The notes: a model not told the origin generated them from the sequence alone. A stretch of DNA of 64,000 nucleotides from an uncultured Acidobacteriota bacterium (GCA_963822445.1 CAWGHO010000003.1:608001-672000), one strand, 5' to 3'. Shown: positions 12,235 to 62,700, numbered from the stretch's first letter. Numbers and translations are program-made.

Positions 12235-12267
12235 ATCGGGCAATAAGTGGCGGGGGAGGAGCGTTGG

Positions 12268-12296: not shown

Positions 12297-12343
12297 GCAC
12301 CCTCGCGCCGGGCCGCCAGCCCGCCGCAGTTCGTTGAAGTAGC

Positions 12344-12418
12344 GGGCCCGTAGCTCAGTGGTAGAGCACCTGGCTTTTAACCAGAGGGTCGTAGGTTCGA
12401 TCCCTACCGGGCTCACCA
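12344..12418 (+). tRNA. tRNA-Lys (TTT)
   Basis: GGGCCCG acceptor stem, TAGCTCAGTGGTAGAGC D-arm, CTTTTAA anticodon loop, GGTTCGATCCC T-arm, CCA end. Confidence 0.97.
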
Positions 12419-12442
12419 GGTTTGCCGCCGCTGACCGCGGCG

Positions 12443-12527
12443 GAATCGAAAATTGAAAATGCAGAATTGAAAACGGCGGGGTCTGGCCCGGCTCATTTTC
12501 AATTTTCAATTTCCCAATTTTCAATTT
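12443..12527. repeat. inverted heptamer arrays (GAAAATT)n ... (AATTTTC)n in the tRNA spacer
   Basis: gaatcgaaaattgaaaatgcagaattgaaaa ... cattttcaattttcaatttcccaattttcaattt. Confidence 0.9.
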
Positions 12528-12542
12528 CGGCAACGCCGATCA

Positions 12543-12618
12543 GTCCCCATCGTCTAGAGGCCTAGGACATCGCCCTTTCACGGCGACAACACGGGTTCGA
12601 ATCCCGTTGGGGACGCCA
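12543..12618 (+). tRNA. tRNA-Glu (TTC)
   Basis: GTCCCCA acceptor stem, CTTTCAC anticodon loop, GGTTCGAATCC T-arm, CCA end. Confidence 0.97.
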
Positions 12619-12623
12619 ATTCG

Positions 12624-35354: not shown

Positions 35355-38068
35355 ATGCGCTTCCGACAGCTGCTCCTTGCCGGGGTTCTCCTTCTCGCGG
35401 CCGCTCCGATGGACGCCGCGGTGCAGGTGAGCATCACCAAACCACAGCCGTCGGAGCTTAGCGGCGATCTGCTGACAGTCAACGCATCGGTGACGTCGAC
35501 GTATCAGTTGCAGAGCGTCACGGCGACCGTGGCCGACCGCTCCACGAGCCTCACCTTCGACTCGTCGTTCGGTCGCTGGACCTGCACGCTCGATCTGACC
35601 GGATTGCCGCGAGGGCCGCTCCAGCTCACCGTCGCCGCGCAGGACGTCTTCGGTAGCACCGACTCGGAACAGGTGACGTTCATCCATGATCGCAAGCCGG
35701 TCATCACGATCGTCGCACCTCTGTCCGAGACCGTGGCCAGGCCGCTCATCCGCATCACCGCCTCCTGTTCGGACGACGATGCCGCCGGCTGTTCCTCGAT
35801 CCGCGTCCGTCCTGGCGCCAACGATGCCGTCACCCTGGCTTCGGGCGTCTCCTCGATCGATCAGGACGTATCGCTGGACGCGTTCGAGGGCCAGACCCTC
35901 GCCCTCGTGTTCGTCGCGACCGACTCTGCACAGCAGGTCACGACTGCCCTACGCTTCGTCCACGTCGACTCCAGCGCGCGCCTGCATGAGTTTCAGGAAG
36001 TGACCGGCCGCATCGTCGATGCGCAGCCGGACCGGATTCTCTTCCTCGATCAGTCCGGAACGTTTCTCAAGATCCGCGACATCGCCACCGCCGCTGACAC
36101 GGATCTCCCCGCCACCCCCGGGAAGAAGCCGGGGAAGAGCTTTCTGACGCCGCGTGGCGCGATCTTCTCCGCGTTCGGCGCGACTGTGGTCGATTCGACC
36201 GTCTATGAGTGGCAGGACGGGAACCTGCTGACGCACACGCATCCAGACTCCGAGTCTTCCCTGGAGGTGACGGGCGCCTACGCGATCTGGACCGGCCCGC
36301 GCGAAACGGACCGGACCGGCCCCACCTACCTTTTCCGCCGCGACATCCTGGCCGGCACGACCACGGAAGTGCCGTTCGTTGAAGTCGGCAACAACTCGAA
36401 CGACGTCGACGAGGACGGTACGGTGGCGTTCTGGAGCAGCAATCCGTACAACATCCACCGGTACAACGGCGGACTGCAGCAGGTGACGAATTCGAACGGG
36501 TCGCTGTGGTACACCTACCCGCTTCTGGACGGCTCGAGCACGCTCTATCGCAAGCACTCGCCGTGCTGCGGCGGCCAGATGTGGGCGATCGCGCATCACG
36601 ATGGCACCAGCGAGACCGAGATCTCACCGTTCAGTTCAACGGAGGTGGCGCAGGACGCCGACTACCAGATCCGCAATGGCTGGATCGCCGTCACTCGCCC
36701 GGGGACGGCCGGCGAACGGCAGGTCTGGCGGCTGGCACCCGACGATTCTTCTCCACCTCGAGCAGGATCGACCTTCTCGGTTCCAACGGCGAGCTGACAT
36801 TCATCAATTACTACCCGAACCGGCAGCGATTCCTCAGCACGCTTTCGGACACGAGCGCCGTCAATTCAGTCCTCGGTAGCGCGTATCACCTCGACGGCGA
36901 GTGGTACGTCGCCATCGGCCGCACGCTCTTCTCCATCGGCGACGCCGGGACGGCCACCACGACGACCGTGACCTCGTCTCCGAATCCGTCCGTGGCCGGT
37001 GAGCCGGTGACGCTCACGGCGACGGTCTCCGGCACCGGTGCCACCGGCATGGTGGCATTCAAGGACTGGCACACCACGATCGGAGCGGCGCCGCTTTCCG
37101 GCGGAACGGCTACGTTCTCCACCTCGTCCCTCTCCCTCGGCTGGCACACGATCTACGCGGTGTACGCCGGCGACGCGAACTTTGCGCCGAGCACTTCTCC
37201 CTCGCACGCGCATCAGGTGAGAACGGCCAGTACCACCACCCTCACCTCCGCGCCCAATCCATCCGACATCGGAACCAGCGTCACTCTGACCGCCACGGTG
37301 ACGGGAAGCGGTGCAACCGGCGAGGTGACGTTCTACGACGGCGCGACCACGCTCGGCACGGCCGCTCTGTCGGGCGGCACGGCCAGCATCTCGCGCACGT
37401 TCCTCGACGTGGGCTTCCACGAGCTCACCGCCACATACAGCGGCGACGCGACGTACGGCGCCAGCACGTCGCCCGTGCACATGCACTCCGTGCGGCCACC
37501 GTTCGGGACACCGTCAGGCCTCACGGCAACGCCGACCGCCCCGAATGAGGTGACCGTGACCTGGAACGGAGTCTCCGGAGCAACTGAATACGAGGTCGCA
37601 CGCGGAACGAATACCACCAATTTCGAGACCATCGGGTCCGTCACCGGCACGTCGTTCAACGACACGACCGTCTCGAGCAACACCACCTACCTCTACATTG
37701 TCCGCGCGATCGGATCCTCCGGCGCCTCGGACTACAGCAGTCTCGACGCGGCGACGACGGTCGTGTTCACGAACGATCCGCTGACGCCGGGCGTCCCCGT
37801 TTTTGCAGTGCACGTGACCCAGCTGCGTGTGGCTGTGAGTGCGATGCGCAGCGCCGCCGGCCTGCCGCCCGCGGCCTTCACCGACCACGTGCTTCCGGCC
37901 GGCAGCCCCATCAAAGCCCTGCACATCCAGCAGCTGCGCGATGCCCTCTCGGCGGCGCGTTCGGCGCTGGGCCTGCCGCCGCTCGCGCTGACCGATCCGA
38001 CGCTGACGCCCGGCGCGACGCCCCTCAAAGCCGCGCACTTGCAGGAGCTGCGCGACGGCTGCAAGTGA
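35355..38068 (+). pseudogene. secreted modular protein (Ig-like, propeller, 2x Big_3-like, FN3, triple-His CTD) with one frameshift
   Basis: Signal peptide MRFRQLLLAG. Frame changes at ~36745 (...WRLAPD / FFSTSSRIDLLGSNGE...). Two Ig repeats 'TTTTVTSSPNPS'. Confidence 0.8.
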
Positions 38069-38165
38069 TAGCTCGCCGTTCGCAGCTCTCTACGGATTAC
38101 GATTCGACTTTCGGGGGGGACGCTAGCGACGACCGCGGCTGTGATGGTTGGCCCAGCGCCCGCGT

Positions 38166-40547
38166 TCAACGCACCCCGTCGCGAAGCTCGTTGATCTCCA
38201 CCCCCCGCACCGGCGAGACGCTTGGCTGCAACACGGGATGCGCGGGCACGATCGCGGACAGGCCGAGCGAGGCGCGAGCGGCAGCGAGCGCAGAGCGAAG
38301 CTCCGTGATGTGCACGGCGCGGATCGGGACGCCAACGAGCGCTGGGTCAGACCACGTCGCGGCCGAAAGGCCGGCGAGAGTGCGCACGGCGTTCACCGCG
38401 TTGCGGAGTTCACTCACGTGGACCGCTTGAACGACGGTGGCCATGGACACGATCGGGTCGTTCGTGAACGTCATCGCGGTCATCAGGTCAGCGGCGCTCC
38501 ATGCCGAGGGGAGCGTGCCGCTCCGTGTGGCTCGGGCGCGATAGGTGTATGCCGATCCGGGCGTGACTGATGCGTCGGTCGTGGCCAGTGACGGCGTCGA
38601 GATCGTGACGCCGTCGTTGCGGGTCACTTCGTAGCCGGTAGCTCCCGGGACGGCGTTCCAGGCGATTGCGGCCGCGGATCCGTTGTAGTGAGCAGTGACG
38701 TTCGCGGGGGCGGCCAACGGTTCGTAGTACGGATTCACGCCGAGTTGCGCGAAGACGTTCCACGACGTGGCCCCGGTATGCAGTCTTCCGAAGTACTCGA
38801 AGCCGAACCCGGTCGAGAGGCCATCGTGACTCGCGGCGACGATCCCTTCGCCGTCGCCGTTCGTCGCCGTCTGTTGTGCGGAGCGGAGAGTCTGACGGTA
38901 CGTATCGGCTTTTACCGCGTCGCCGGCCACGGCATAGGCGACGGTCATCTGCGCCGTCCCTTCAAACCAGACCCCGTCGCGGTCTTCATTGAAGTCGAAC
39001 CCGCTGAATCCATCGGCGGTCGTCGCGTGGTTCGCTTCGGCGCAGCCGAGGATCGTTGGATGGGCCGCGAGCGCGTTCGGCAGCGAGAGCACCGCCCACG
39101 CCTGCGCGTCGAGCGGAAGCATCCCGGACGCGGTGTTGCGCGTCTCCGGGTCGTTCGTTCCGGTCAGATAACAGCCGCCGTTCCACATGGCCTCGACGAA
39201 GTCGCGCGCGTGTGCGGCGCCGGTCTGCCAGCGCGTCTCGCCCGTAACCGCGTACAGGCGCGAGAACACGGCATTCACGTCGAGATTGTGCTCCGTGCTG
39301 GCGAACGCCCGCGTGATCGTCGATCCGCCGGGATATTCGAGACCGCCGAGGAAGCCGCGATAGGTGCCGGAGTCATTGCGGAACGCGTCAATGAGGTTGC
39401 CGAGCTTGCACGCGGCGTCGAGATACTTCGTCTCGAGCGTCCGCTGGTGCAGCGCGAGCAGCGCGAGTGCGGCCCAGGCGTTGTTCCCGACGTCCACAGT
39501 CTGCGCGCCGGCAAGGGGCACGGTGCCGGAGCGGCCGTGCGGCGTCCAACCCGGCGGCAGTGCGATGTCCCCCGACGCGTACGAACTGCGAAGACGCGCG
39601 CCATCGACGGTCTGCGGGTCGATCGCGACAGCACACGATCGGTTGTCATTGAAGACCACGTCGTGCTCCATGGCCTCGATGAACGCGTCACCGATCAGCT
39701 TCGCCCGCCTCACGCTGTCGCTCGAGCCGTCAGCGAGAAACGCCAGGGCCACCAGGGCGTTGTCGTAAGTGAAGGAGATCCTGCGCAGCGCGAGATCGAC
39801 GCCGCTGTTCAGCGCGAGCGTCGTGTAACTGCGGAGAAACCGCGGCTCGTTGAGCCGCGCTTCGGTCTGTGCCGGACCGAGCGTGTATTCGATGTCGTCG
39901 AGGTAGAACGTCGCTCCGCCCGGATTGTGCAACGTCTCGGCGAGCCAGCCGAACCCGCCGATCACATACGAGAGATTCATTCCGGTGAGATCGATCGAGT
40001 ACTGCTGCCAGGCATTGGTGAGCGTCGTTCGCGTTCCCGCTGCCGGCCGCCGCGATGCCGAGTCGCCGTAAGGTCCGCCGACACCGGCGAGGAAAAATTC
40101 GACTTGTTCGCCGCCGCTCTCGCCGCGTGCCCAGAACGTCAGCGTCGTCGCTCCGGCGAGCGCTGTGATTCCTGCGTTGGGGACCGTTCCCCAGTTCGGT
40201 GCCGGCGTGGTGTCGGTTCCGGTGAGCGTGCCGTTCAGGAAATACCACCCGGCCCATCCAGATGCCGAGGCCGCGTCGTAATGGCAACGGATCGCAGTCG
40301 CTCCCGTGTGCCGGGTCGCGGTCCACGAAGCGTCGAGTGAGGTCACTCCATCCGCCGGCATTTTGTCGTAGGCCACGAAGTGATTGCCCGGCGATTCGTC
40401 GTCGTCATAGACGAAGAAGCGGCTGTGGTCATGGTCCATGACCTTCTTCAGATACTCGATGCTGGCCGACACGGATTGCTGCGCCGGTTGCGCGAAGGCC
40501 GGCGTTCCCGCCAGCAGCAGAACGAGGCAGAACCGGCCAGATCGCAT
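38166..40547 (-). CDS. secreted CBM-like + (alpha/alpha)6 glycoside hydrolase-like protein with FN3 and triple-His CTD
   Basis: Signal peptide. 'LTFWARGESGGE...WQQYSIDL...FYLDDI' CBM-like domain. 'TYDNALV', 'STEHNLD', 'VWFEGTAQ'. Confidence 0.8.
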   Translation of the reverse strand: MRSGRFCLVLLLAGTPAFAQPAQQSVSASIEYLKKVMDHDHSRFFVYDDDESPGNHFVAYDKMPADGVTSLDASWTATRHTGATAIRCHYDAASASGWAGWYFLNGTLTGTDTTPAPNWGTVPNAGITALAGATTLTFWARGESGGEQVEFFLAGVGGPYGDSASRRPAAGTRTTLTNAWQQYSIDLTGMNLSYVIGGFGWLAETLHNPGGATFYLDDIEYTLGPAQTEARLNEPRFLRSYTTLALNSGVDLALRRISFTYDNALVALAFLADGSSDSVRRAKLIGDAFIEAMEHDVVFNDNRSCAVAIDPQTVDGARLRSSYASGDIALPPGWTPHGRSGTVPLAGAQTVDVGNNAWAALALLALHQRTLETKYLDAACKLGNLIDAFRNDSGTYRGFLGGLEYPGGSTITRAFASTEHNLDVNAVFSRLYAVTGETRWQTGAAHARDFVEAMWNGGCYLTGTNDPETRNTASGMLPLDAQAWAVLSLPNALAAHPTILGCAEANHATTADGFSGFDFNEDRDGVWFEGTAQMTVAYAVAGDAVKADTYRQTLRSAQQTATNGDGEGIVAASHDGLSTGFGFEYFGRLHTGATSWNVFAQLGVNPYYEPLAAPANVTAHYNGSAAAIAWNAVPGATGYEVTRNDGVTISTPSLATTDASVTPGSAYTYRARATRSGTLPSAWSAADLMTAMTFTNDPIVSMATVVQAVHVSELRNAVNAVRTLAGLSAATWSDPALVGVPIRAVHITELRSALAAARASLGLSAIVPAHPVLQPSVSPVRGVEINELRDGVR

Positions 40548-41537: not shown

Positions 41538-42179
41538 TCAGCGCAACCACTTCATCGAAACCCCCGCCTCCCCCCGAATCGCCACGGCGCCGCGGTAACC
41601 GCCGTCGAGCTCGAACGCGTGAACGCTGAGGCCCTGCAGCAACGCGAGCTCGGATTGGACGGGCACGAACCGGCCGACTTCCGGACGGACGACGAACGAG
41701 TCGAGGGCGTGCGCGAGTCCACGGCCGGTGGCTTTGATGACCGCTTCCTTCGCCGTCCAGATGGCGAGGAAGGTGGCCGGCACATCCTCCGCGATCTCCA
41801 CCGTGCGCCGTTCCTCGGGAGCGAAGAAGCGGTGGGCGAGCTCGCGCGCGTCCGAAACGGCTCGCGGGCCTTCGATGTCGACGCCGACCGGTTGCTGCGA
41901 AACGGCGAGCACGACGAGTTGGCCGGAGTGGCTGATGTTGAACTCCAGACCGCCGCCGGCGAGCGCGGGTTTCCCTTCGTCAGCGCGCGTGAAGCGCAGG
42001 TCACGCGGATCGTGCGATGAGTACTTCGCCAGCACTACCCGGCGGAGGTAACGGCTCATGGCCGCGCGTTTGCGGTCGTCCTCGAAGCGATAACGCGCCA
42101 CTTCCGCCGCTTCCTCGTCGTCGAGGAGCGAACCGTCGATGCGTGTGCCGATGTCGGCGAGCCAGAGATCGAGCATCAT
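41538..42179 (-). CDS. Sfp-type 4'-phosphopantetheinyl transferase
   Basis: GKP, FNISHS, VGVDIE, WTAKEAVIKATGRG. Confidence 0.93.
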   Translation of the reverse strand: MMLDLWLADIGTRIDGSLLDDEEAAEVARYRFEDDRKRAAMSRYLRRVVLAKYSSHDPRDLRFTRADEGKPALAGGGLEFNISHSGQLVVLAVSQQPVGVDIEGPRAVSDARELAHRFFAPEERRTVEIAEDVPATFLAIWTAKEAVIKATGRGLAHALDSFVVRPEVGRFVPVQSELALLQGLSVHAFELDGGYRGAVAIRGEAGVSMKWLR

Positions 42180-42186
42180 TGCCAGT

Positions 42187-43266
42187 ATGAAACAAGCGCT
42201 GATCCTCCTGGTGCTCGTGGCCCTGGCGGTCTGGGTCGCGTCGTGGTTCTGGGCGGGGGACCAGGTCGACGCCGCGGCCGCACGGCCGTGGCCTCATGGA
42301 CTGGGAACGCTCGCCCGGGTTCCCGATCGGTATCCGCCGCAGCAAGAGAATGAAGCTGCGCGGAAGCTCACGAGTCTCACCGGCTCAATCGCCGAAAACG
42401 ACGCCGTCACCACGTACGTGCGAAAGGAGATCGCGAGCGGCGAGCTGACCATCGCCGAGCCGCCGGCGATCCCCGACCTCTCCGCGATCCGCGACCTGCT
42501 GCTGCGCGAGCCGATCGTCTGGAAGCGGCAGATCTCCGTCCAGCACGGCGGTCTTCTGGTGCGAGTCCCGATGTTCCTTTCGCTGACGCGAGCTCTGATC
42601 GCAAACGCGCTGGGCCGCGCGCGCCAGAACGACATCGCCGCGTGGGACGACCTGCACGCGGCGTGGAATCTGACGAAGTCGCTCGACGGACATCCGCATA
42701 TCGTGCTGCGCGTCGTCGCGATGGCGATGACCCGCACGATCAACGCCGTGGCGTGGAAGATGCCCCTTCCTGCGCCGGCGTGGTTCGCCGAGTTGCAGGA
42801 GCGCGAGCTCGTGCGGCCGCTGTTGGAGACGCTGCAGTTCGAGAACTGGCGGCAGTGGAAACATCATGTGTTCGCGCTGAAGCCGTTCGCGGAGCGGATC
42901 GAGCGCGAGCGCGCGCTCACCGCCGAGTTGGGGCGGATGACTGAATGCGAGTTCAAGCGCGTGACCGAGACCGGCGATCGCGGTGATCCTCTCTCCAGGC
43001 TCGACATCGGGTGGCGGCGATCCTTTCGCTACCGCGCCGAACGCGAGGCCACGGCGAACGCACTGCGCGCACGTGCCGGGCAGCCGATCGAAGCAGGCTC
43101 GCGCTGCAGCGACGGCACCTGGAGCTTCGACGGAAAGACGCTCCGGTTCGCGAAGCCGATCGCGTTACCGGAGAAGATCGACACGTCGATGCCGCTGACG
43201 TTGCAGGTGGGAGACGCCGTTCAGCGCGCCGTTCCTCCAACTGCGCGACTCCCGAAGCGGAGATAG
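42187..43266 (+). CDS. exported hypothetical protein
   Basis: N-terminal TM/signal MKQALILLVLVALAVW. Helical body. 3' end overlaps the RND gene convergently. Confidence 0.7.
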   Translation: MKQALILLVLVALAVWVASWFWAGDQVDAAAARPWPHGLGTLARVPDRYPPQQENEAARKLTSLTGSIAENDAVTTYVRKEIASGELTIAEPPAIPDLSAIRDLLLREPIVWKRQISVQHGGLLVRVPMFLSLTRALIANALGRARQNDIAAWDDLHAAWNLTKSLDGHPHIVLRVVAMAMTRTINAVAWKMPLPAPAWFAELQERELVRPLLETLQFENWRQWKHHVFALKPFAERIERERALTAELGRMTECEFKRVTETGDRGDPLSRLDIGWRRSFRYRAEREATANALRARAGQPIEAGSRCSDGTWSFDGKTLRFAKPIALPEKIDTSMPLTLQVGDAVQRAVPPTARLPKRR

Positions 43267-46200
43267 AGCGCCGGCACGACGAACATGTTCAGGGCCGTCG
43301 AGGTCAACAGGCCGCAGAGGATGACGATGGCCATCGGCGTCTGAATCTCGCTGCCCGGCTTGCCGATCGCCAGCGCCAGCGGGATCAGTGCAAGTCCGGC
43401 CGAGAGCGCCGTCATCAGGATCGGCGAGAGCCGCTCCATAGCGCCCCGCTGCACTGCCTCGCGCACGTCCGTCACGCCTTCGTGGGTCATGAGGTGATGC
43501 GTGTGCGAGATGAGCATCAGGCCGTTGCGCGTGGCGATGCCGAAGAGGGTGATGAAGCCGATGATCGACGCGACGGAGAGCGTTCCTCCCGCGACGTAGA
43601 CGCCGGCGACGCCGCCGATCAGCGCGAGCGGCAGGTTGACCATGACCAGCGCCGCATCGCGCAGCGAGTCGAGCGCGATGTAGAGCAGCAGCAGGATTCC
43701 GGCGATGACGACGATGCCGAGGAGCACGAGACGGCGCGACGCTTCCGCTGCGCTCTCGAACTGGCCGCCGTATTCGATGTGATAGCCGGCCGGCAGCTTC
43801 ACCGTCGCCGCGACCTGATCGCGGATGTCCTCGACGACGCTGGAGAGATCGCGGCCGGCGACGTTCGACATGACGACCGCCTTCCGCTCGACGTTCTCGC
43901 GGCTGATCGTGTTCGGTCCCCGATCCTTCCGAACCTCGGCCAGCGCGGAAAGCGGAATCTGTGCGCCGCCTGGCGTGGCGATGCGCGTGGCGCGGATCGT
44001 CTCGAGATCGCCGGTCGCCGCCGCTTCGTAGCGCACGACGAGATCGAATGCGGCGCGTCCTTCGAGGATGCGCGAGACCTCGTGCCCGGCGAAGGCCGTC
44101 TCGATCGCTTCGGCAACGTCGGTGATCTGCAACCCGTACCGGGCGATGGCCGCGCGATCGAACTTCACGGTGAGGAAGGGGATGTCCGGCTGCTGTTCGA
44201 GCGACACGTCGGCCGCGCCTTCGACCGCCGTCACGACGTTCTTCACCTGCTCGCCGAGCTTGCGCAGCGTCGCCAGATCGTCGCCGAAGATCTTCACGGC
44301 GATGTTCGCGCGCGTGCCGGAGAGCATGTGGTCGATGCGATGCGAGATCGGCTGGCCGATGGTGATGTTCGTTCCCGGCACGGCCGACAGCTTGCGCCGC
44401 AGATCGGCCAGAAATTCGTCCTTGCCGCGATCCTTCATCTTCAGGCTGACCTCCATTTCGGAGGCGTTGACGTCCTGCGCGTGCTCGTCGAGCTCCGCAC
44501 GGCCGGTGCGCCGGGCCGTGGCCACGACTTCCGGCTCGCCGAGGAGGATTTCCTCGGTCATTCGTCCGAGGCGGTCTGAGGTTTCGAGCGACGTTCCGGG
44601 AAGGGTGACGAGGTTGATGGTGAGCGTGCCTTCGTTGAAGTCGGGGAGGAACGCGCGGCCCGCGAACGCGAGCGCGACGCCGGCGATCGCGAGCGCGGAG
44701 ACGGAGACAGCCGTGATCAGCTTCCAGCGATGCAGCACGCGGCCGAGCAGCGGCGCGTAGCGCGATTTCAGCCAGTGCACGACACGGCTTTCCTCCGGCA
44801 GCGCGCGCGGCAGGAGAAGCGAGCAGAGCGCCGGCGTGACCGTCAGCGCGACGACGAGCGACGCGGCGAGCGACACGATGTAGGCGAAGCCGAGCGGCCG
44901 AAGCAGGCGGCCTTCGATGCCGGTGAGGAAAAACAGGGGCAGGAAGACGAGCACGATGATGACCGTCGCAAAGACGATCGACCCCCGCACTTCGCGGCTC
45001 GCTTCAAACACGACCTCGAGAACATTTCTGCTTTCTGCCTTCTGCTTTCTGCTTTCGCGCAGCCGGCGCACGACGTTCTCGACGTCGATGATCGCGTCGT
45101 CCACGAGCGCGCCGACGGCGATGGCCATGCCGCCGAGGGTCATCGTGTTGATGGTGATGCCGAACAGCTTCATGGCCAGGATGGCCGTCACCAGCGACAG
45201 CGGGATGGCGAGCACGGTGATCCCGGTCGCGCGCGCGCTCATGAGGAAGATGAAGACGATGGCAATGACGAGGATCGCGCCGTCGCGCAGTGCGGCGACG
45301 ACGTTCCGTACGGCGATCTCGATGAAGTCCGACTGCCGGAAGATGTGGCTGTTGATCTTCATGCCGGCCGGCAACGACTTCTGGATGTCGGCCATCACCA
45401 CGTCGAGCTGCCGCGTGAGCTGGAGCGTGTTCGCGGCCGGTTGCTTCTGGATGCCGAGAATGACCGCGGGCTTGGCGTTGTGCGAACCCTCGCCTCGTTT
45501 CAGAGCAGCGCCGATCTGCACGGTTGCCACATCGCGGACGAGGATCGGCTGGCCGCCGCGCTCGACGATGACGGTCGCGCCGATGTCGTCGGGAGTGGTG
45601 ATGCGGCCCACGCCATGAATCAGATACTCCTGACCGCCTTCGCGGTAGAAGCCTGCCGATGTGTTCTCGTTGCTCTCGCGAAGCGCGCGGATCACGTCAT
45701 CCACGCCGAGCGTGAATGCGGCCAGACGGTCGGGCCGCACGATCACCTGGTACTGCTTCGTCTCGCCGCCGGTGGGGATGACCTGAGACACGCCCGGCAC
45801 CGCGAGCAGGCGGCGACGCACGGTCCAGTCGGCGACCGTTTTCAGCTCCATCGGCGTGTGCTGGTTCGAGGTGAGGGCGATGAACATGATCTCGCCCATG
45901 ATCGAAGAGACCGGCGCGAGCACGGGCGGCGGCATGTCCGGCGGCAGCGTCGATTGCGCGAGCTGGAGTTTCTCGCTCACGACCTGGCGGGCCTGGTAGA
46001 TGTCCGTGCCCCATTCGAACTCGACCCAGATCACGGCGATGCCGACGCCCGTGGACGAGCGCACGCGCCGGACGCCCGATGCCCCATTCAGCGCCGTCTC
46101 GACGGGAAAGGTGATCTGCGTCTCGACTTCCTGCGGCGCCATGCCATGCGCTTCGGCGACGACGGTCACCGTTGGCGCGGTGAGATCGGGGAACACGTCC

Positions 46201-46307
46201 ACCGGCATCTTCACCGCTTCGTACGTACCCCACGCCAGGAGCAGCGCCGCCGTGACGATCACGATGAGACGGTTGTTGAGAGACCACTGGATGATGTTGT
46301 CGATCAT
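43221..46307 (-). CDS. heavy-metal RND efflux permease (CusA/CzcA family)
   Basis: PVDVFPDL, GALVDDAIIDVENV, RLSPILMT, GSEIQTPMA. Confidence 0.95.
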   Translation of the reverse strand: MIDNIIQWSLNNRLIVIVTAALLLAWGTYEAVKMPVDVFPDLTAPTVTVVAEAHGMAPQEVETQITFPVETALNGASGVRRVRSSTGVGIAVIWVEFEWGTDIYQARQVVSEKLQLAQSTLPPDMPPPVLAPVSSIMGEIMFIALTSNQHTPMELKTVADWTVRRRLLAVPGVSQVIPTGGETKQYQVIVRPDRLAAFTLGVDDVIRALRESNENTSAGFYREGGQEYLIHGVGRITTPDDIGATVIVERGGQPILVRDVATVQIGAALKRGEGSHNAKPAVILGIQKQPAANTLQLTRQLDVVMADIQKSLPAGMKINSHIFRQSDFIEIAVRNVVAALRDGAILVIAIVFIFLMSARATGITVLAIPLSLVTAILAMKLFGITINTMTLGGMAIAVGALVDDAIIDVENVVRRLRESRKQKAESRNVLEVVFEASREVRGSIVFATVIIVLVFLPLFFLTGIEGRLLRPLGFAYIVSLAASLVVALTVTPALCSLLLPRALPEESRVVHWLKSRYAPLLGRVLHRWKLITAVSVSALAIAGVALAFAGRAFLPDFNEGTLTINLVTLPGTSLETSDRLGRMTEEILLGEPEVVATARRTGRAELDEHAQDVNASEMEVSLKMKDRGKDEFLADLRRKLSAVPGTNITIGQPISHRIDHMLSGTRANIAVKIFGDDLATLRKLGEQVKNVVTAVEGAADVSLEQQPDIPFLTVKFDRAAIARYGLQITDVAEAIETAFAGHEVSRILEGRAAFDLVVRYEAAATGDLETIRATRIATPGGAQIPLSALAEVRKDRGPNTISRENVERKAVVMSNVAGRDLSSVVEDIRDQVAATVKLPAGYHIEYGGQFESAAEASRRLVLLGIVVIAGILLLLYIALDSLRDAALVMVNLPLALIGGVAGVYVAGGTLSVASIIGFITLFGIATRNGLMLISHTHHLMTHEGVTDVREAVQRGAMERLSPILMTALSAGLALIPLALAIGKPGSEIQTPMAIVILCGLLTSTALNMFVVPALYLRFGSRAVGGTAR
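45025..45056. repeat. heptamer array inside the RND coding sequence
   Basis: atttctgctttctgccttctgctttctgcttt, translated as ESRKQKAESRN in the cytoplasmic loop after TM4. Confidence 0.85.
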
Positions 46308-46309
46308 TT

Positions 46310-46340
46310 GAAGGCAGAAAGCAGAAGGCAGAAGGCAGAA
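46310..46340. repeat. left heptamer arm (GCAGAAG)n
   Basis: gaaggcagaaagcagaaggcagaaggcagaa. Confidence 0.92.
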
Positions 46341-46358
46341 GTGCCTTTTGCCAGACGG

Positions 46359-46703
46359 CTACTGCCTCCTCCATTTCTTGATGAGTGTTACGAAGATCGC
46401 AATCAGCTCTTCGGTCTCGCGCATCAGCGGCTCGATGCGGTCGGTCGGGAAAACGTCAGCCCCAATGAGCAACTCCAGCCAATAGAGCGTCTCCTCGAGT
46501 TCCATCAGGCCGCTGTTGAGTTTCGCGACGTACTCCGCTTTCGAGCGGGCACGCAGCGCCTCGCGAAAATGCGCGCCGGGTGATGTTCCAGATCGGAGCA
46601 ACTGCTTACCGATGACCGCCGCGACCTGGTCGCGCGGCAGTGCCGAGTACAGCCTGATGATCCGCAGCGAATACTCCCGAGTCCGATCCACAAGCGTGCT
46701 CAT
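46359..46703 (-). CDS. four-helix-bundle protein (23S rRNA IVP / TIGR02436-like)
   Basis: QLLRSGTSPGAHFREA.RARSKAEY..KL....ELEET.YWLELL. Confidence 0.92.
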   Translation of the reverse strand: MSTLVDRTREYSLRIIRLYSALPRDQVAAVIGKQLLRSGTSPGAHFREALRARSKAEYVAKLNSGLMELEETLYWLELLIGADVFPTDRIEPLMRETEELIAIFVTLIKKWRRQ

Positions 46704-46704
46704 A

Positions 46705-46742
46705 TTTCTGCCTTCTGCCTTCTGCTTTCTGCCTTCTGCCTT
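46705..46742. repeat. right heptamer arm (CTTCTGC)n
   Basis: tttctgccttctgccttctgctttctgccttctgcctt, the reverse complement of the left arm. Confidence 0.92.
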
Positions 46743-48325: not shown

Positions 48326-48371
48326 GATCCGGTCCCCCATTTCTGCTTTCTGCCTTCTGCATTCTGATTTC
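48242..48371. repeat. empty inverted heptamer cassette spanning the TolC/adaptor junction
   Basis: (GCAGAAR)n at 48242-48290, ~48 bp spacer, then (TTCTGCY)n at 48340-48371. Confidence 0.88.
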
Positions 48372-52639: not shown

Positions 52640-55213
52640 CTACTCCAACCGCGTCCTCAGCTCCTGCACGTGCACGGCCTTGACGGCGAGGCCTTGCGGT
52701 GCGGCATCGGTATAGCCGCCGGTCGAAAGGGCCAGCGCGGAGCGCGCGGCGTCGAGCGCCGAGCGGAGTTCGGTCAGGTGCAGTGCTTTGATCAGCGTGC
52801 CCGCAGCCGCGGTGTCGGTGAAGGTCGTGGCCGTGAGTGCCGCCAGCAGGCGGACGGCATTGACCGCCGAGCGGAGCTGAGTGATGTGCGCCGATTGCAC
52901 GATCACTCCTGACGCGAGCGGGTGATTCGTGAAGACGACGGTCGTCGCGAGATCGACATTGCTGTTGCCCGACGTTCCCGATCCGTTCACCGCGCGGACA
53001 CGGTAGAGGTGCGCGGTTGCAGCGGCCAGTCCGTCATCGGAGTACGCGTTGCCGATCGAGGTGTCGATCTGCACGTAATCGCCGCCGGCGGACTTGCGGT
53101 CGATCTGGTACGAATCGGCGCCGGCGACGGCGGTCCAGGTGAGATCGATCGTCGACGAGTTCGCGGCCGTGGCCACGAGTCCCGTCGGCGCCGACGGTGC
53201 GCCGCCCGCGGCGGCGATGATCTCGAGGCGATTCGTGGCGCCGGTCAGATCGCGGTTCAGCGTGATCCACAGCTCGCTCGCGGCCGCGCGCAGCGACGGG
53301 TAGTAGTCCGTGTCGGAAACGAGGGTCGCGCCGGCGAGCTTCACCGTCGGATACGAGCCGCTGGTGAAGCCGCGGATGACGATCAGAGGCTTCTTCAGCG
53401 TTCCCGCACCGACGGCGATGTTCGCGTCGACGGCGTTGCTGCTCGCGGAGAAGGTGAGCGCGCCGTAGACGTGGTCGTAACCGGCGGGCGTGTACGTCGC
53501 CGTGTCGGAGCGTCCCGCGCCGGCGGGGCCGCTCGTGGCGACGCTTCCGATCGTCGTGCTGAGCGTGAGCGTCTGCATCGTCTCGATCTGCGTCACCTGC
53601 GCTTCGACCGGCGTCGTGGTGTGCTTGCCGAAGACGATGTGCGTCGAATAGCTCTTGCGCGGCCAGCCCGGCGCGGTCGCGTTCGCGAGCGGACCGCCGT
53701 AGTAGTTGCTGCCGTGCACGAAGTACTCGTTCTGGCCGAGGAAGCCGAAGTTCGTGCCCCAGGCCAGGCGGGTGTTGCGCGTCTGGCCGCCGTAGATCGA
53801 GTACTGAATCGACTGGTAAGGCCAGTTGTAGTCGCACGGCATCATGTGGCCGGCACAGCCCTGGTTCGCAGGTCCGCTCACCGTGCCCCAGTCGGCGGTG
53901 CCGTAGTAGCCGCCGGCATCCTGCTGCGTGATCGGCTGGGTCTGCACGGTGCCCATCGTCGCGTCGACGGCGGTGGTCCAGAGTTTCACGTACGGGATCG
54001 TGTTCGCGACGTTCCAGGTCCAGTCGCTGGCGTACGTCACCGGATTGGTCGTCGAGGCGAATTTGTAGCGGTCGCCCCAGCCCACGCCGGCGATGTGGCT
54101 GTGCGTGCCTTCGCTCGCGGCGCCGTCGAAGAGCAGCTCGCCGTACGGCCCGCGGGCGTCGTCGAGGAGCGTGTTCACGTCGATGTCGTTCATGTCCCAG
54201 GTCACAGCCCAGAGCGGATGGTCGTGGCCGGTGGCGAACATCCAGTCGATGGTGACAGGGAGGTTGATCGGTGCGCCGGGAGCGACGCCGCCGGTCTGGC
54301 AGTAGCGCGGATACGACTGGGTGAAGCGGAAGATGGCGTGATGGCGTCCTTCGAAGACGCGCGTGAAGGTGCCGGTCCAGAAATGGCCGAGGGAGGAGCT
54401 GTCGTAGAGGTTGGGGTCCATGCAGGCGGTGTCGTCATGCGCGTGCGCCACGACGTAGCCGAAGCCCGCGGCGCCCGCTGACGATGCGGCGACTGTGCGC
54501 GTGGCGTTGTCGACCTGATAGCGGAACTCGCGGAGCTCGCCGCCGCGCGTTCCGCCGGGGCCGACCTGACCGGTGTTGTGGGCCAGCACCGCCACCCGCG
54601 GCTGGTTGTTGCTGTCCTGCCAGGTGAAGCGGTCGCTGACCATCGCCCCGACGGTGACGTCGCGCTCGATCTGCATCGTTCCCGCCGGCTGCGACACCGG
54701 AGCCTGCAAGACGATGTCGTCGATGTAGAACGTCGCCTGCACGCCGGCGCTGTCGCTGCCGATGTGGATGCGATCGAACGAGCCGGCGTAGGGAAGCTGG
54801 GCGAGGGGGACGGTCACCTCGCGCCACGCGTTCGCGACGAGCGCACCGCCGCTGATGAACGCGTCGAGCTCCGCGCTCGCCACGTCGACGTTGTTCAGCT
54901 CCAGTCCGAAGTACACCTGCTGGCCGCCGGTGGTGCCGCCGTGAATCCAGAAATGAATCGTCGGATAGCCCGCCGCGGTGTAGTCGATCGTCGGATGCCG
55001 CAGAGAAATGGCGTTGTAGTTGTTGCCGGTGAGGGCGAACGACTTCGTGCCGGTGTATGCCTGGGCCGTGCTGGCCGGATCCGATCCGCCGCCGTACGAC
55101 GCGTCGAGAAATCCGTTCTGCAGCGCGTCGTCGTAAACCGTGACGTCCTGCGCGGCAAGGGGGATGGCGAGAAAACATGGGGCGAGCAGCAGCGCGGGCA
55201 ACAGGTTTTTCAA
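52640..55213 (-). CDS. secreted protein: CBM-like domain, unknown catalytic-like domain, FN3, triple-His CTD
   Basis: Signal peptide. 'VYDDALQNG...IHFWIHGG...FYIDDI' CBM-like domain. C-terminal FN3 + CTD. Confidence 0.85.
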   Translation of the reverse strand: MKNLLPALLLAPCFLAIPLAAQDVTVYDDALQNGFLDASYGGGSDPASTAQAYTGTKSFALTGNNYNAISLRHPTIDYTAAGYPTIHFWIHGGTTGGQQVYFGLELNNVDVASAELDAFISGGALVANAWREVTVPLAQLPYAGSFDRIHIGSDSAGVQATFYIDDIVLQAPVSQPAGTMQIERDVTVGAMVSDRFTWQDSNNQPRVAVLAHNTGQVGPGGTRGGELREFRYQVDNATRTVAASSAGAAGFGYVVAHAHDDTACMDPNLYDSSSLGHFWTGTFTRVFEGRHHAIFRFTQSYPRYCQTGGVAPGAPINLPVTIDWMFATGHDHPLWAVTWDMNDIDVNTLLDDARGPYGELLFDGAASEGTHSHIAGVGWGDRYKFASTTNPVTYASDWTWNVANTIPYVKLWTTAVDATMGTVQTQPITQQDAGGYYGTADWGTVSGPANQGCAGHMMPCDYNWPYQSIQYSIYGGQTRNTRLAWGTNFGFLGQNEYFVHGSNYYGGPLANATAPGWPRKSYSTHIVFGKHTTTPVEAQVTQIETMQTLTLSTTIGSVATSGPAGAGRSDTATYTPAGYDHVYGALTFSASSNAVDANIAVGAGTLKKPLIVIRGFTSGSYPTVKLAGATLVSDTDYYPSLRAAASELWITLNRDLTGATNRLEIIAAAGGAPSAPTGLVATAANSSTIDLTWTAVAGADSYQIDRKSAGGDYVQIDTSIGNAYSDDGLAAATAHLYRVRAVNGSGTSGNSNVDLATTVVFTNHPLASGVIVQSAHITQLRSAVNAVRLLAALTATTFTDTAAAGTLIKALHLTELRSALDAARSALALSTGGYTDAAPQGLAVKAVHVQELRTRLE

Positions 55214-58860: not shown

Positions 58861-61800
58861 CTACTCGACGCGCGTCCGCAGTTCCTGTAGATGCACGGCT
58901 TTGACCGGCACGCCCGTAGGAGCCGCATCGGTGTAGCCGCCCGCCGCGAAGCCGAGTGTCGAGCGCGCCGCATCGAGCGCGCCCCGGAGCTCGGTCAGAT
59001 GCACGGCGTTGATGATCGTTCCCGGCAGGGCCGTGCCGGTGAACACGAACGCGTTTTGTCCTGCGAGCGCGCGAACGGCGTTCACGGCCGTGCGGAGCTG
59101 GGTGACGTGGACAGACTTGATCGCGATTCCGGCGACGAGCGGGCTGTCGGTGAAGATCGTCGTCGTGGCCAGATCGGAGACGCTGTTGCCCGAGGCGATG
59201 GCGAGGTTTGCGGCGCGGACGCGGTAGAGGAATGAGGTGTTCACCGGACGGCTCGTATCGGAGAACGCGGTCGAGGATGGCGTGGCGATGTGCGTGAATC
59301 CGCCATTCGCTTCCATGCGATCGACCTGATACGACGTCGCGCCGCTGACCGCGTTCCAGGTGAGATCGACCTGCGACGGAGTCACGGCGCGGGCGTTCAA
59401 TCCTGCCGGCGCCGCGAGCGCAACAACCGTGTAGGTGTAGCCGCTCGTCGACGTCCCGCTGCCGCCGGCCGTGGTGACGACGACGTCGACCGCTCCCGCC
59501 GCGTGTGCCGGAGTGATGACGACGATGGACGTGGCCGTATTCGCTGTCATCGGTGCGGGCAACCCGCCGAAGGTCACGGAGGTCGCGTTCGACAGATTCG
59601 TGCCGGTGATGGTGACGCTCTGGCCGCCGGCCGTCGTGCCGGACGAAGCGAGGATCGAGGTGATCACCGGCGCGCTGATGTAGCGATACGCGCCGGTGAG
59701 GGTGAGGCTGCCCGCAGAGGTCGTAACCACGACGTTGACCGTTCCCGCGGCCGCCGCGGGCGTCATGACCGTAATCGCCGTCGCGGTGTTCGAGCTAATG
59801 GTTCCCGCCGAACCGCCGAACGTGACCGACGTCGCACCGGCGAGATCGGTTCCGCTGACGATCACGCTCTGCCCGCCGGCCGCCGGTCCCGCGCTCGCGG
59901 AAAGCGAGGAGACGGTCAGCGCATTCTTCGAGGTCAGCTTGAAGCCGGTCAGGCTCGTGTGGTGGCCGCTGAACTGCGCGCCGAACGCGTAGATGCGGAA
60001 GGTGACGGTCGCGTTGATGGAAGCGAAACTCGCCGGCAGGATGACCACGTGCTCGTTCTCGTCGAAGTTGTCCTTCGATACGAGGTCGCTCGTGTAAATC
60101 GCCGAGGCGAACCCGTCGAGGCTCGAAAACAGCGCGTAGCCGCGCGGCGAGTGGTAGTCGATGCGGCGCGTCGAGAAGCGCACTTCACCGCCGTTGAGAT
60201 TGAGCGGCGGCGTCGCGGGCGTGACCGTGGCGGTGAGGAGCTCGTTGTCGGTGATGGCGCCGGCGAGCGTCGAGTCCTGCGCTTCCGACCCATCGCCGGA
60301 GGGGCCCGCGACGCTGAACACGAAGGCGTCGTTCACCGTTTGCGGCGACACGCCCGCGCCGATGTTCCATCCGCCCCAGGTCACCTTCGAGGTGTCGAGG
60401 ACGAAGGTCTGCGTGAACGGCCGGTTCTGCGCGGGCGCGGTGCCGGTGAAGTTGCTCTGAATCAGCGTGCCCGGTCCGCCGAAGGTCTGCAGGGTGAACG
60501 TGCGCCAGGCCGGGTCGCCATCCGCATCCTGCACGCGCGCGAGGATGTAGTTCTTCCGGCTGGTGATCGGCGTACCGCTGATCTCCAGCGTGTCCGCGGA
60601 CGGATTGCTGATCGACAACCCGGCGTCGAGGTGTGAGCCGACGACCACCAGCGAGCGCGATCCCGTTCCGCCGGTCGTGGTGATGGTGGTGGTGTAGCTC
60701 TGCCCGGCGATGCCCGCGGGAAGGGTCGCGCTGGTGGCGAACGAAGGCACGCCGCCGGCGGCCGCATCGATGTGGCGGAGAGTCGAGTAGAGCGTGAAGT
60801 GCTCGAGCATCAGCGCGTACTTCGGCGACTCGGCCGGCTCCTGCTCGAGCAGCTCGAGATGGCCCCACTGCCCGAAGCGGGTCCACTGGCTTGTGTCGGT
60901 GTAGGGGTTGTGCGTCCACAAGCCTTTGCTCTTCGCCAGGTCGAGATGGATGCGGTAGACCTCGGCGATGCGCGGATCGCGATTCATCGCCTCCATGAAG
61001 ATCGTGACGCCGTCATCGGTCGTCGTTCCACCGGAGTCGAGCGAATCGGTGAAGATCGACGGACCGCCCTCGTACGCGATCAGTGGCAGGCAGGGCGGCG
61101 CGTCGGCTGCCTGCGAGCAGTACGTGGTCAGCGTCTCTCTGGCGAGATCGCGAAGGCTGGCGTCGAAGCCGCCGCTGGTTCCCGTCGCATCCGGTCCGCT
61201 GCCCGCCACCGAATCGCCGGCGAGAATCCGCCGCTTCCATTCCTCGAAGGCGAGGTGCATGTGCGTGTCGAAGAGATCGCTCTGCCAGTAGGGATCGTTG
61301 AACGGCTTCCCGGTGGTGAAGTCCTGGTCGTCGACGAAGCCCTGAATGTCGTTGCCGAAGTACGTCGTCAGCGCGAGCACGTCAGGGCGAACCTGCGGAC
61401 TGAGCGACTGTCCGTACGTGCCGATCTCGGTCAGGAAGGGACGCGAGTACGCATCGAGCGCGGTGAAGATTGCCGCCACCCGCACCAGCCGTGAGGTGTC
61501 GCCGCTGAAGATAGTCTGGAAGATCTTCCAGCTGTCGCAGAACTTCCGCGCCGTGAATTTCGCCTTCGCCGCGGTGTCCGACCCCAGCCCGGCGATCGCG
61601 GCCTGTTCCTGCGCCCAGTTGCCCTGAGGAAAAGCGAAGCCGCTGGACCAGATCTCGTTCGAGAACTCGACGTACACCTTGAGATGGGAGTTGAGCGGAG
61701 CGAAGACCGGACTGGGATTCGTGCTCGTGTACGGATTCACCCCATCGCTGCCGAAGCGGATCAGTTGCGCGAGCCTGGTGATGTAGTCGGCCGTGGCCAG

Positions 61801-62700
61801 GTGGGGGATGTTGATCCAGAGGTCTTTGCTGGTCTGGTTGCTCAGCGCCACCATGTGCTCCCAGGCCACGCCGGTCTCGCGATTGCCGTCCGACGTCGCC
61901 GACGGCGCGCGCGCGTTGAGGATGCCCGCCTGAAACACGTGATTGGGGACGCGCCGGTCCACCCAGTCCTGCTGCGGGCTGGCGTTGGTCTTTCCCCAGT
62001 CCATGAAACGGATGAAGCTCCAGTTCGCATCGGCGATCCGCTCGAGAAACAGCGGATGGAAGAGCTCGCCCTCCAGCGAATCGGTGAAGGCCTCGTTCAC
62101 CGCGGGCGTGGCCGGATCGTCGACCGCCGGCAGCCACACCTTGATGTCGGTGATGGGCGTGGCCATCCCGCGGATCTCGAGCGATTCGGGGATGGTGTTG
62201 CCGATGTACACGCGCCGGCCGTTGAGCAGATTGCCGGTCGCGGCGCCGGACGACTCGCCCGCCTGGAACGTGCCGGTCTTGAGGCGGATGTCGGCATTGC
62301 CCTGCCAGGTGAGGACGTACTTCCCTTTGGCCAGAGTGTCGCGCGCCGGCCAGCCGGCAGGCCGGACATGGGTGTTGTTGATATTCAACCCGAAGAGCAG
62401 CGCGCGAAGATTCGGGCCACGCGGCGACAGCGACTGCGGATACCCGTTCACGAACTGCGCGGCGTTCGCAGGGGCGCTGAAATCGACCCTCGTTCCGAAC
62501 TGGAAATCGCTGAACTCGTACCACTCGCCGCCCAGAGCCATGGAGTTGGCGAGGTAGGGAGTGTTGAAGTAGGCGACGTCGCTGGGGTGATATCCGACCG
62601 GGCGGAGGATCGACGGGTCGATCTGCGCCGCGAGAGGCAAAGCGAGGCAAACCAGGCTCGCGGCGATCCAGATGCGTGAGTTGTGAGCGTTGTCCGACAT
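58861..62700 (-). CDS. secreted GH-A-like glycoside hydrolase with 2 IPT/TIG domains, FN3 and triple-His CTD
   Basis: 'IRFMDW', 'LWINIPH', 'YVEFSNEIW', 'LIAYEGG'. Two IPT repeats 'GGQSVxxxGTxLxxATSVTFGG'. Confidence 0.85.
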   Translation of the reverse strand: MSDNAHNSRIWIAASLVCLALPLAAQIDPSILRPVGYHPSDVAYFNTPYLANSMALGGEWYEFSDFQFGTRVDFSAPANAAQFVNGYPQSLSPRGPNLRALLFGLNINNTHVRPAGWPARDTLAKGKYVLTWQGNADIRLKTGTFQAGESSGAATGNLLNGRRVYIGNTIPESLEIRGMATPITDIKVWLPAVDDPATPAVNEAFTDSLEGELFHPLFLERIADANWSFIRFMDWGKTNASPQQDWVDRRVPNHVFQAGILNARAPSATSDGNRETGVAWEHMVALSNQTSKDLWINIPHLATADYITRLAQLIRFGSDGVNPYTSTNPSPVFAPLNSHLKVYVEFSNEIWSSGFAFPQGNWAQEQAAIAGLGSDTAAKAKFTARKFCDSWKIFQTIFSGDTSRLVRVAAIFTALDAYSRPFLTEIGTYGQSLSPQVRPDVLALTTYFGNDIQGFVDDQDFTTGKPFNDPYWQSDLFDTHMHLAFEEWKRRILAGDSVAGSGPDATGTSGGFDASLRDLARETLTTYCSQAADAPPCLPLIAYEGGPSIFTDSLDSGGTTTDDGVTIFMEAMNRDPRIAEVYRIHLDLAKSKGLWTHNPYTDTSQWTRFGQWGHLELLEQEPAESPKYALMLEHFTLYSTLRHIDAAAGGVPSFATSATLPAGIAGQSYTTTITTTGGTGSRSLVVVGSHLDAGLSISNPSADTLEISGTPITSRKNYILARVQDADGDPAWRTFTLQTFGGPGTLIQSNFTGTAPAQNRPFTQTFVLDTSKVTWGGWNIGAGVSPQTVNDAFVFSVAGPSGDGSEAQDSTLAGAITDNELLTATVTPATPPLNLNGGEVRFSTRRIDYHSPRGYALFSSLDGFASAIYTSDLVSKDNFDENEHVVILPASFASINATVTFRIYAFGAQFSGHHTSLTGFKLTSKNALTVSSLSASAGPAAGGQSVIVSGTDLAGATSVTFGGSAGTISSNTATAITVMTPAAAAGTVNVVVTTSAGSLTLTGAYRYISAPVITSILASSGTTAGGQSVTITGTNLSNATSVTFGGLPAPMTANTATSIVVITPAHAAGAVDVVVTTAGGSGTSTSGYTYTVVALAAPAGLNARAVTPSQVDLTWNAVSGATSYQVDRMEANGGFTHIATPSSTAFSDTSRPVNTSFLYRVRAANLAIASGNSVSDLATTTIFTDSPLVAGIAIKSVHVTQLRTAVNAVRALAGQNAFVFTGTALPGTIINAVHLTELRGALDAARSTLGFAAGGYTDAAPTGVPVKAVHLQELRTRVE

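Follow-up and report, generated by a model that had tools for sequence, protein, structure and literature searches.

Why do secreted-type proteins with differing cargo finish in the same hundred residues? The question is raised by a 64,000-nucleotide stretch of DNA from an uncultured Acidobacteriota bacterium (the window, C3:608001-672000 of genome G000, a 6.0 Mb assembly in 3 contigs), in which the genes ending at 38068 (+), 38166 (-), 52640 (-) and 58861 (-) share a C-terminal domain, their products aligning over the last ~102 residues. An earlier note, made from the sequence alone, had pointed out this domain and put it forward as a new signal that anchors or routes its cargo at the cell surface. 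The analysis gives good support to two conclusions: the triple-repeat unit represents a new and widespread family of domains that fold independently, and it is genomically coupled to genes for fibres that resemble the mosaic adhesive trimeric (MAT) fibres of Bdellovibrio. What the domain does is weighed below against three alternatives.

The shared domain consists of three homologous repeats

The four window copies (Table 1) are 47-53% identical to the first sequence and have 27 invariant columns, which include the H, L and R of the first two H-x-x-[EQ]-L-R motifs and the E, L and R of the third. The third His is replaced by Glu in the protein ending at 38166, which reads GVEINELR, just as the earlier note had it. 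Each repeat is ~36 residues long and starts with [FYW]-T-D, followed after 8-9 residues by [VI]-K-A-x-H-x-x-[EQ]-L-R. Repeats 1 and 2 go on as x-A-[VL]-x-A-x-R-x-x-x-G-L, while repeat 3 terminates 3-4 residues past L-R, where the protein itself ends. The domain C-terminus reads ...E-L-R-x-x-V-x, with no hydrophobic or transmembrane stretch and no basic tail.

The three-fold pseudo-repeat that had been proposed is borne out by comparing the repeats with one another: the median scores of cross-repeat hidden Markov models (HMMs) are 26-39.5 bits, compared to about -1 for shuffled sequences, and hhalign probabilities are 98-99%, so that the three repeats are mutually homologous. Across 148 full-length domain instances, the His of the three repeats is conserved at 98, 97 and 92%, Asp being the commonest replacement in repeat 3, and the Arg of L-R at 98, 98 and 100%; the aromatic residue of [FYW]-T-D is kept at 93-97% and the Lys at 72-77%.

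We modelled the third window copy (52640 gene) with AlphaFold2 and a 30-sequence alignment (pLDDT 84.5, pTM 0.78). Three helices (residues 19-35, 55-71 and 91-101) are separated in the model by non-helical, extended linkers of ~19 residues, and the repeats are together predicted to form a single-chain, pseudo-threefold three-helix bundle. Each helix has L, L, V and V at i, i+3, i+7 and i+10, a pattern that by our own reading would fit a coiled-coil-like a/d core; by the same heptad reading, the His would occupy a 'g' position that flanks the core. Foldseek returned no convincing match from the PDB (best E 2.2) or from the viral BFVD (best E 0.26). The highest VIA-align Z was 6.9, to a designed filament; BARA domains scored 6.7 and 6.0 and an SLH domain 3.6, all within the tool's 'common arrangement' range and thus not implying homology.

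The ~90 residues upstream of the domain align across 33 proteins and have near-invariant P, A, Y, R, Y and D columns. Pfam fn3 (PF00041) is matched at E <= 0.001 in 16 of the 30 domain-bearing proteins of the genome. The FN3 domain that had been placed ahead of every window copy was found by Pfam in the 52640 gene; in two of the other genes the match is weak, and in the 38166 gene there is none. In Vicinamibacterales-type loci, the spacer before the domain can also be Ig-like or LRR.

The domain family is large, patchily distributed and unannotated

We built an HMM from the four window copies, ran it on the six-frame open reading frames (ORFs) of the genome and iterated the search. The genome holds 30 copies (domain E 2.3e-39 to 1.1e-24 after iteration), and two extra rounds added no copy. 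That number of copies at such E-values, together with the mutually matching repeats, places the domain far beyond chance. By a crude hydrophobicity heuristic, rather than SignalP, 27 of the 30 proteins have a signal-peptide-like start, and two of the remaining three lack one because their reading frames are split. The earlier claim that unrelated signal-peptide proteins carry the domain therefore extends from the window to the genome. Their Pfam-identified cargo comprises S8 subtilases, M12 and M10/M57 metalloproteases, GH44, FG-GAP, CAP and Calx-beta proteins, as well as a DMFA2_C-like enzyme and Big_3_5/TIG arrays.

We then scored 1.84 billion cluster representatives with a profile made from all 30 copies. 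The profile matched 7078 proteins or clusters (50% identity) at E <= 0.001, 5320 at E <= 1e-10 and 265 at E <= 1e-30. A Pfam scan of 68 representatives found the same spectrum of extracellular cargo, in which FG-GAP, Reprolysin and S8 recur most and DUF11, PKD, NHL/Kelch, CBM6, Amidase_2 and RHS also occur; no Pfam family covers the domain in these 68. Judged by record titles in one-genome-per-species collections, the hosts are mainly Thermoanaerobaculia, Vicinamibacterales, Pyrinomonadaceae/Blastocatellia and other Acidobacteriota, and a few records are titled Rokubacteria/Methylomirabilia or Chloroflexota. Within the phylum the domain is patchy: it occurs in 12 of 301 sampled genomes and in 4 of 5 relatives from the window's own family, and it is absent from the sampled genomes of other families in the same class.

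The suggestion that the domain was new agrees with searches of characterised families. Pfam leaves it unmatched both in the full window proteins (E <= 0.1) and in the 30 copies taken alone (E <= 10), NCBIfam has no match covering it, and PHROGs has no named family for it, one of the 30 copies matching a single unnamed family at 5.6e-04. The best match among PDB sequences, to a xylose isomerase (E 0.063), was judged spurious. Matches in the ESM Atlas are to unnamed clusters only, and the source annotations of 84 homologues read 'hypothetical', 'fibronectin type III domain-containing' or give cargo names such as 'S8 family'. A limited full-text literature search on secreted C-terminal domains of Acidobacteriota and Thermoanaerobaculia found no account of the domain.

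A large family has thus gone without annotation, although 30 of the secreted proteins of this one genome carry it. Giving it a name and a model would improve the annotation of secretomes in Thermoanaerobaculia, Vicinamibacterales, Pyrinomonadaceae and Rokubacteria/Methylomirabilia-labelled genomes, groups that are abundant in soil and have few cultured members.

The domain is mostly C-terminal and does not depend on that position

In this genome, 29 of the 30 copies finish 1-3 residues ahead of the stop codon, and in 141 of the 150 best representatives the domain lies <=5 residues from the C-terminus. We sampled 78 loci of other species with 87 domain-bearing ORFs, using stop-to-stop frames filtered by GC content at third codon positions (GC3) as gene calls. 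There, the domain is C-terminal in 70 of the 87, is followed by 6-20 residues in 7 and is internal in 10. The earlier note had named frequent internal occurrence as a point against its proposal; that point applies in part outside this genome, where internal copies do occur.

The genome's sole non-C-terminal copy (L006; G000 C3:1812562-1815429, -) belongs to a protein in which a signal peptide is followed by FN3, the domain, two cadherin-like domains and a C-terminal HExxH protease region. Seven of the ten internal cases elsewhere are RHS-repeat proteins, where the unit of FN3 and domain can be N-terminal (L114), can precede the RHS core and toxin tail (L107, L108) or can be C-terminal (L109, L110). 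The N-terminal copy in L006 and the varied positions in RHS proteins argue that the domain is autonomous and needs no free C-terminus. The RHS toxin genes of L107 and L108 (G064 C27 and G034 C16; ~1940-1976 residues) lie directly downstream of fibre genes, and their triple-repeat domain is inserted right ahead of the conserved RHS core (DPxGL) and the variable tail. Two domain copies share one chain in 3 of the best 150 representatives (P0005, P0006 and P0007), one of which has an RHS-associated tail.

Domain-bearing genes are coupled to genes for MAT-like fibres

Clustering the flanks of the 78 other-species loci revealed one recurrent fibre-family neighbour. The encoded protein has a signal-peptide-like start, repeats of the G-N-V-G-I-G-T-x-x-P type and a very conserved C-terminal part of ~140 residues. 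Its shaft matches solved MAT fibres of Bdellovibrio bacteriovorus (8ond at E 1.5e-13; also 8oml, 8ol4, 8ojn and 8on4, to 1.3e-03), and its C-terminal part weakly matches the Peptidase_G2 intramolecular chaperone (IMC) family (1.9e-07), so that by sequence the C-terminal domain looks like an auto-chaperone. The monomer model is poor (pLDDT 50.9).

According to PMC10769870, MAT proteins are trimeric surface adhesins of the predator Bdellovibrio, with a conserved N-terminal domain of ~130 residues and variable tips that recognise prey; the paper describes the fibres' own attachment or anchor partner as unidentified. The neighbouring fibre resembles them in its signal-peptide-like start and its G-N-V-G-I-G-T type beta-helix shaft. 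It differs in that it lacks the conserved N-terminal domain, its conserved part being C-terminal, and in that its chaperone match is of the G2 rather than the S74 type; it also comes from a different phylum, and the trimeric assembly is the one shown in Bdellovibrio. Consistent with the missing N-terminal domain, the best score to NCBIfam Bdello_MAT_N (NF053851) among three fibres scanned was 22.7 bits, in one of them, against a cut-off of 60.

In 9 of the 78 other-species loci, no more than 3 kb separates a domain-bearing gene from a fibre gene, which is mostly directly downstream. Nine regions from seven other genomes have the fibre gene immediately adjoining the domain-bearing gene, and in L112 and L113 the two open frames are 3 nt apart. 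The cargo encoded beside fibre genes includes a subtilase (S8), a propeller/BACON protein, RHS proteins (5 cases) and small proteins with little but the domain, and the domains found there are scattered through the domain tree rather than forming one clade. In this genome, the fibre gene at C1:855520-856491 stands divergently beside three consecutive domain-bearing metalloprotease genes.

Two of the small proteins (L115 2797-3648, -; L033 2428-3306, +; 284 and 293 residues) adjoin fibre genes. In both, the N-terminus is basic and there is a single hydrophobic segment; the sequence SKEYIYAGG[KR]L[IV]ATE is common to the two, after which come FN3 and the domain. Other cargo is absent, and the proteins could act as adaptors anchored in the membrane.

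The coupling is also seen at the level of whole genomes. In the 301-genome phylum sample already used for the domain, the 27 strong matches to the fibre subfamily (E <= 8.6e-57) are confined to 9 genomes, all of them domain-positive (9 of 12 positives compared to 0 of 289 negatives); the best fibre match in the 289 domain-negative genomes is at 7.8e-31. At least 19 of the 27 strong matches lie within 10 kb of a domain match when 16 domain candidates per genome are scored. A further check on 14 distinct domain-positive genomes, picked blind to fibre status (15 records, one duplicating G056), found the strong fibre family in 10 (three labelled Rokubacteria or Methylomirabilia), or in 9 of 13 if G308, which is flagged unpublished, is left out. 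Overall, the fibre subfamily is present in 19 of 26 domain-positive genomes. These counts include related genomes, which are not independent: in the phylum sample, the genomes positive for both features come from three families, and those with the domain but not the fibre from two. The association is asymmetric, with the fibre subfamily occurring only alongside the domain in the sampled genomes and the domain occurring also without the fibre.

A docking module as the preferred interpretation

From these observations we infer a binding function and the identity of the likely partner. We propose that the domain is an independently folding, non-covalent docking or anchoring module with the MAT-like fibre as its leading candidate partner, a reading that we consider about evenly balanced between right and wrong. 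In each repeat, an extended [FYW]-T-D segment would lead into a K-A-x-H-x-x-E-L-R helix, and three such units would make up the pseudo-threefold bundle. Placed usually after an FN3 or Ig-like spacer on proteins presumed to be Sec-exported, the domain would hold varied cargo (subtilases, M12/M10 metalloproteases, GH44, FG-GAP proteins and RHS toxins) on a partner outside the cell and would not act as a cleaved secretion signal. The leading candidate for that partner would be the adjacent-gene fibre, with its MAT-related beta-helix shaft and conserved, auto-chaperone-like C-terminal domain; a single-chain pseudo-threefold domain meeting a homotrimeric fibre would be an attractive geometry. Of the earlier proposal that the domain anchors or routes cargo, SLH-like anchoring remains the best general reading, and sorting in the manner of the C-terminal domain (CTD) of the type IX secretion system (T9SS) is not supported.

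A more specific version of the proposal is that soil Acidobacteriota and the Rokubacteria/Methylomirabilia-labelled genomes have a display system of their own, in which a pseudo-threefold 'plug' docks onto homotrimeric MAT-like fibres with proteases, glycosidases and RHS toxins aboard. We regard this version as unlikely, and it is put forward tentatively for what it would imply. If true, an adhesive fibre would carry enzymes and toxins and deliver them when it meets a substrate or a competing cell, in a cellulosome- or phage-tail-like arrangement made from parts unrelated to cohesin and dockerin. In any case, the fibre and RHS linkage offers a testable idea of how these bacteria hold degradative enzymes and toxins at their surface, and it may bear on the point that the Bdellovibrio paper leaves open, namely what trimeric adhesive fibres attach to.

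Several observations weigh against the docking module or against the fibre as its partner. This genome has only 2 fibre genes, and only 3 of its 30 domain-bearing genes are near one. The fibre subfamily is missing from 7 of the 26 domain-positive genomes, and two complete genomes of Vicinamibacterales type, whose domain copies number at least 16 and at least 11, gave no fibre match; the fibre therefore cannot be a universal or the only partner. Loci of this type contain clusters of domain-bearing genes, but neither a fibre gene nor another obvious partner. The co-occurrence of fibre and domain could also reflect joint inheritance or island transfer. The predominantly terminal position, both in this genome and among the best representatives, is what a terminal sorting signal would be expected to show as well, and export was called with a coarse heuristic. 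Finally, the role of the conserved polar residues may be to hold linker and helix together through salt bridges instead of contacting a ligand.

Alternative roles for the domain

The alternative that survives best, although we consider it unlikely, is that the domain works like a lectin or substrate-binding module and recognises a target, such as polysaccharide, peptidoglycan or the surface of another cell, rather than the producer. On that target it would concentrate hydrolases and toxins; three-fold beta-trefoil CBM13 modules would be a parallel. In its favour, all three repeats have the same conserved aromatic and polar set (F/W/Y, T, D, K, H, E and R), the domain is independent of position, and it accompanies proteases, GH44, Amidase_2, CBM6-containing proteins and RHS toxins. 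The linked fibres are moreover related to fibres of Bdellovibrio that, according to PMC10769870, recognise prey. The domain has no likeness to any carbohydrate-binding module (CBM) or lectin family in Pfam, however, and its cargo is mostly proteases and FG-GAP proteins rather than one class of glycosidase. A small helical fold is also unusual for carbohydrate binding. Binding to a target and binding to the cell's own surface are not told apart by these data.

It is less probable still, and in our view improbable, that the domain is a C-terminal sorting signal, read and perhaps removed by a dedicated export or attachment machine as in the T9SS CTD or PEP-CTERM/exosortase systems. The prevalence of terminal copies in all three samples, the signal-peptide-like starts, the large paralogous sets with very mixed cargo and the patchy distribution are what such a signal would produce. 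The N-terminal copy in L006, the internal copies (most of them in RHS proteins) and the tandem copies are not, and neither are the small proteins that have little apart from the domain. The domain also has a helical model and no transmembrane or hydrophobic tail, and the neighbour search in this genome and the 78 other loci found no recurrent processing or transport gene. The likeness to a T9SS-type sorting signal that had been suggested is therefore not upheld.

A metal-dependent stability or oligomerisation module, in which a His3 or His/His/Asp site would stabilise the bundle or link molecules and no specific partner would be involved, is highly improbable: the His conservation, the repeat-3 substitution by Asp (Glu in one window copy) and weak structural neighbours among designed zinc-induced helical assemblies (Z 3.7-4.1, not meaningful alone) would fit it, but a tri-His site is not favoured by a His that appears to lie at 'g', outside the core, and a pure stability role leaves the fibre-gene linkage unexplained.

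Comparison with known systems

The docking module that we prefer can be compared with SLH triplets, whose three repeats of ~55 residues each contribute a helix to a pseudo-threefold bundle and anchor cargo non-covalently at the surface. SLH triplets do so by binding pyruvylated secondary cell-wall polymer, in a CsaB-dependent way. Like SLH (PF00395), the domain has three homologous repeats and a three-helix model and is found at the terminus of many unrelated secreted-type proteins. Unlike SLH, its repeats are ~36 residues, its structural similarity to SpaA-SLH (6cwc) is only the low value given above, and neither the 30 copies (E <= 10) nor the four full proteins (E <= 0.1) match the SLH profile; the genome has one weak SLH match elsewhere.

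The dockerin-cohesin pairs of the cellulosome provide a second comparison, since there too a small, repeated, mostly C-terminal module is carried by varied enzymes and the presumed scaffold genes are few (2 fibre genes compared to 30 domain-bearing genes here). Type I dockerin (PF00404) differs in having two repeats rather than three, no EF-hand-like calcium loops are visible in the domain, and the Pfam profile is not matched at E <= 10. The candidate that would take the place of cohesin is a beta-helix fibre whose Bdellovibrio relatives are trimeric and which is linked to the domain at the level of genes.

The domain shares with the T9SS CTD and PEP-CTERM signals its many paralogues per genome, signal-peptide-like starts, mixed cargo and mostly extreme C-terminal position. 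The T9SS CTD is a beta-sandwich, unlike the helical model obtained here; no such Pfam match was found for the domain, and N-terminal and internal copies exist. Unlike PEP-CTERM/exosortase signals, it has no transmembrane helix or basic tail. Whole-genome searches with PF18962 and PF07589 gave 0 matches and are uninformative, because the controls were silent too.

The best natural structural neighbours are the BARA domains of Vps30/Atg6 (3vp7) and Beclin 1 ECD (4ddp), with root-mean-square deviations of 3.3 and 3.2 A over 101 residues. They have three beta/extended-alpha repeats with pseudo-threefold symmetry and align over the whole model; they are also about twice as large, eukaryotic and intracellular, with 10-11% identity and no sequence match. 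The BARA likeness shows neither homology nor shared function.

Features of the window and its neighbourhood

The coordinates of the domain copies, their FN3 spacers and the genes that carry them are collected in Table 1. The span 37760-38475, where the domain was first remarked on, contains two convergent domain-coding gene ends separated by 97 bp. As for the cargo, which was said to differ among the four genes, Pfam supplies Big_3_5 domains in gene 1 and TIG domains in gene 4; the propeller, (a/a)6 GH-like and GH-A-like labels given before are without Pfam support.

Table 1. Positions in the window of the four triple-repeat domain copies, the FN3-like spacers ahead of them and their genes.
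Feature	Position	Strand	Remarks
Triple-repeat domain copy 1 (stop codon included)	37760..38068	+	ends split gene 35355-38068; HMM domain E 8.7e-38
Triple-repeat domain copy 2 (stop included)	38166..38480	-	ends gene 38166-40547; third His replaced by Glu
Triple-repeat domain copy 3 (stop included)	52640..52948	-	ends gene 52640-55213; copy used for AlphaFold2 model
Triple-repeat domain copy 4 (stop included)	58861..59169	-	ends gene 58861-62700
FN3-like domain ahead of copy 1	37508..37738	+	Pfam fn3 E 0.0095 (below cut-off); upstream alignment
FN3-like region ahead of copy 2	38481..38753	-	upstream alignment only; no Pfam match
FN3 domain ahead of copy 3	52958..53194	-	Pfam fn3 E 4.3e-06, residues 674-752
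FN3-like domain ahead of copy 4	59170..59412	-	Pfam fn3 E 0.084, weak; upstream alignment
Gene 1: signal-peptide-like start, unknown N-terminal part, Big_3_5 x2, FN3-like, triple-repeat domain	35355..38068	+	
Gene 2: signal-peptide-like start, cargo without Pfam family, FN3-like, triple-repeat domain	38166..40547	-	
Gene 3: signal-peptide-like start, cargo without Pfam family, FN3, triple-repeat domain	52640..55213	-	
Gene 4: signal-peptide-like start, large cargo without Pfam family, IPT/TIG x2, FN3-like, triple-repeat domain	58861..62700	-	

Gene 1 consists of two frames that overlap at 36383-36797. The upstream frame has its signal-peptide-like start at 35355 and stays open until 36797, the domain-carrying frame is open from 36383, and the sensible protein sequence changes frame near 36750-36797. 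Either the gene is frameshifted or the assembly contains an error.

Besides the fibre, the recurrent neighbours of domain-bearing genes are response regulators and kinases, antisense or split frames and one three-member family of membrane-anchored helical proteins. This family (window 42139-43266, +; G000 C2:1570889-1571944; C2:211559-212719) has ~350-390 residues, an N-terminal membrane anchor, a helical remainder and no Pfam family. Every copy lies within 6 kb of a domain-bearing gene, one of them directly upstream of L007, and the related loci L057 and L085 have the same neighbour, possibly via synteny.

Between the fibre gene at C1:855520-856491 and the three domain-bearing metalloprotease genes (L105; G000 C1:848000-866000), a gene at 8707-10287 (+) of that region encodes a two-TM protein of 526 residues, with a hydrophobic segment close to either terminus and a long helical stretch between them, which by eye resembles a polysaccharide co-polymerase; it has no Pfam or NCBIfam match, no paralogue and no domain copy. 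Elsewhere in the window, large genes without a Pfam family (515, 638, 1597 and 1514 residues) are interleaved with GT2/GT1 glycosyltransferase genes at 4352-21850 (-), which may be a surface-polymer locus. An RND efflux operon at 43221-49565 (-) encodes an AcrB-like pump, an HlyD-like adaptor and an outer-membrane factor, with a gene for a 23S-rRNA-intervening-sequence protein between the pump and adaptor genes.

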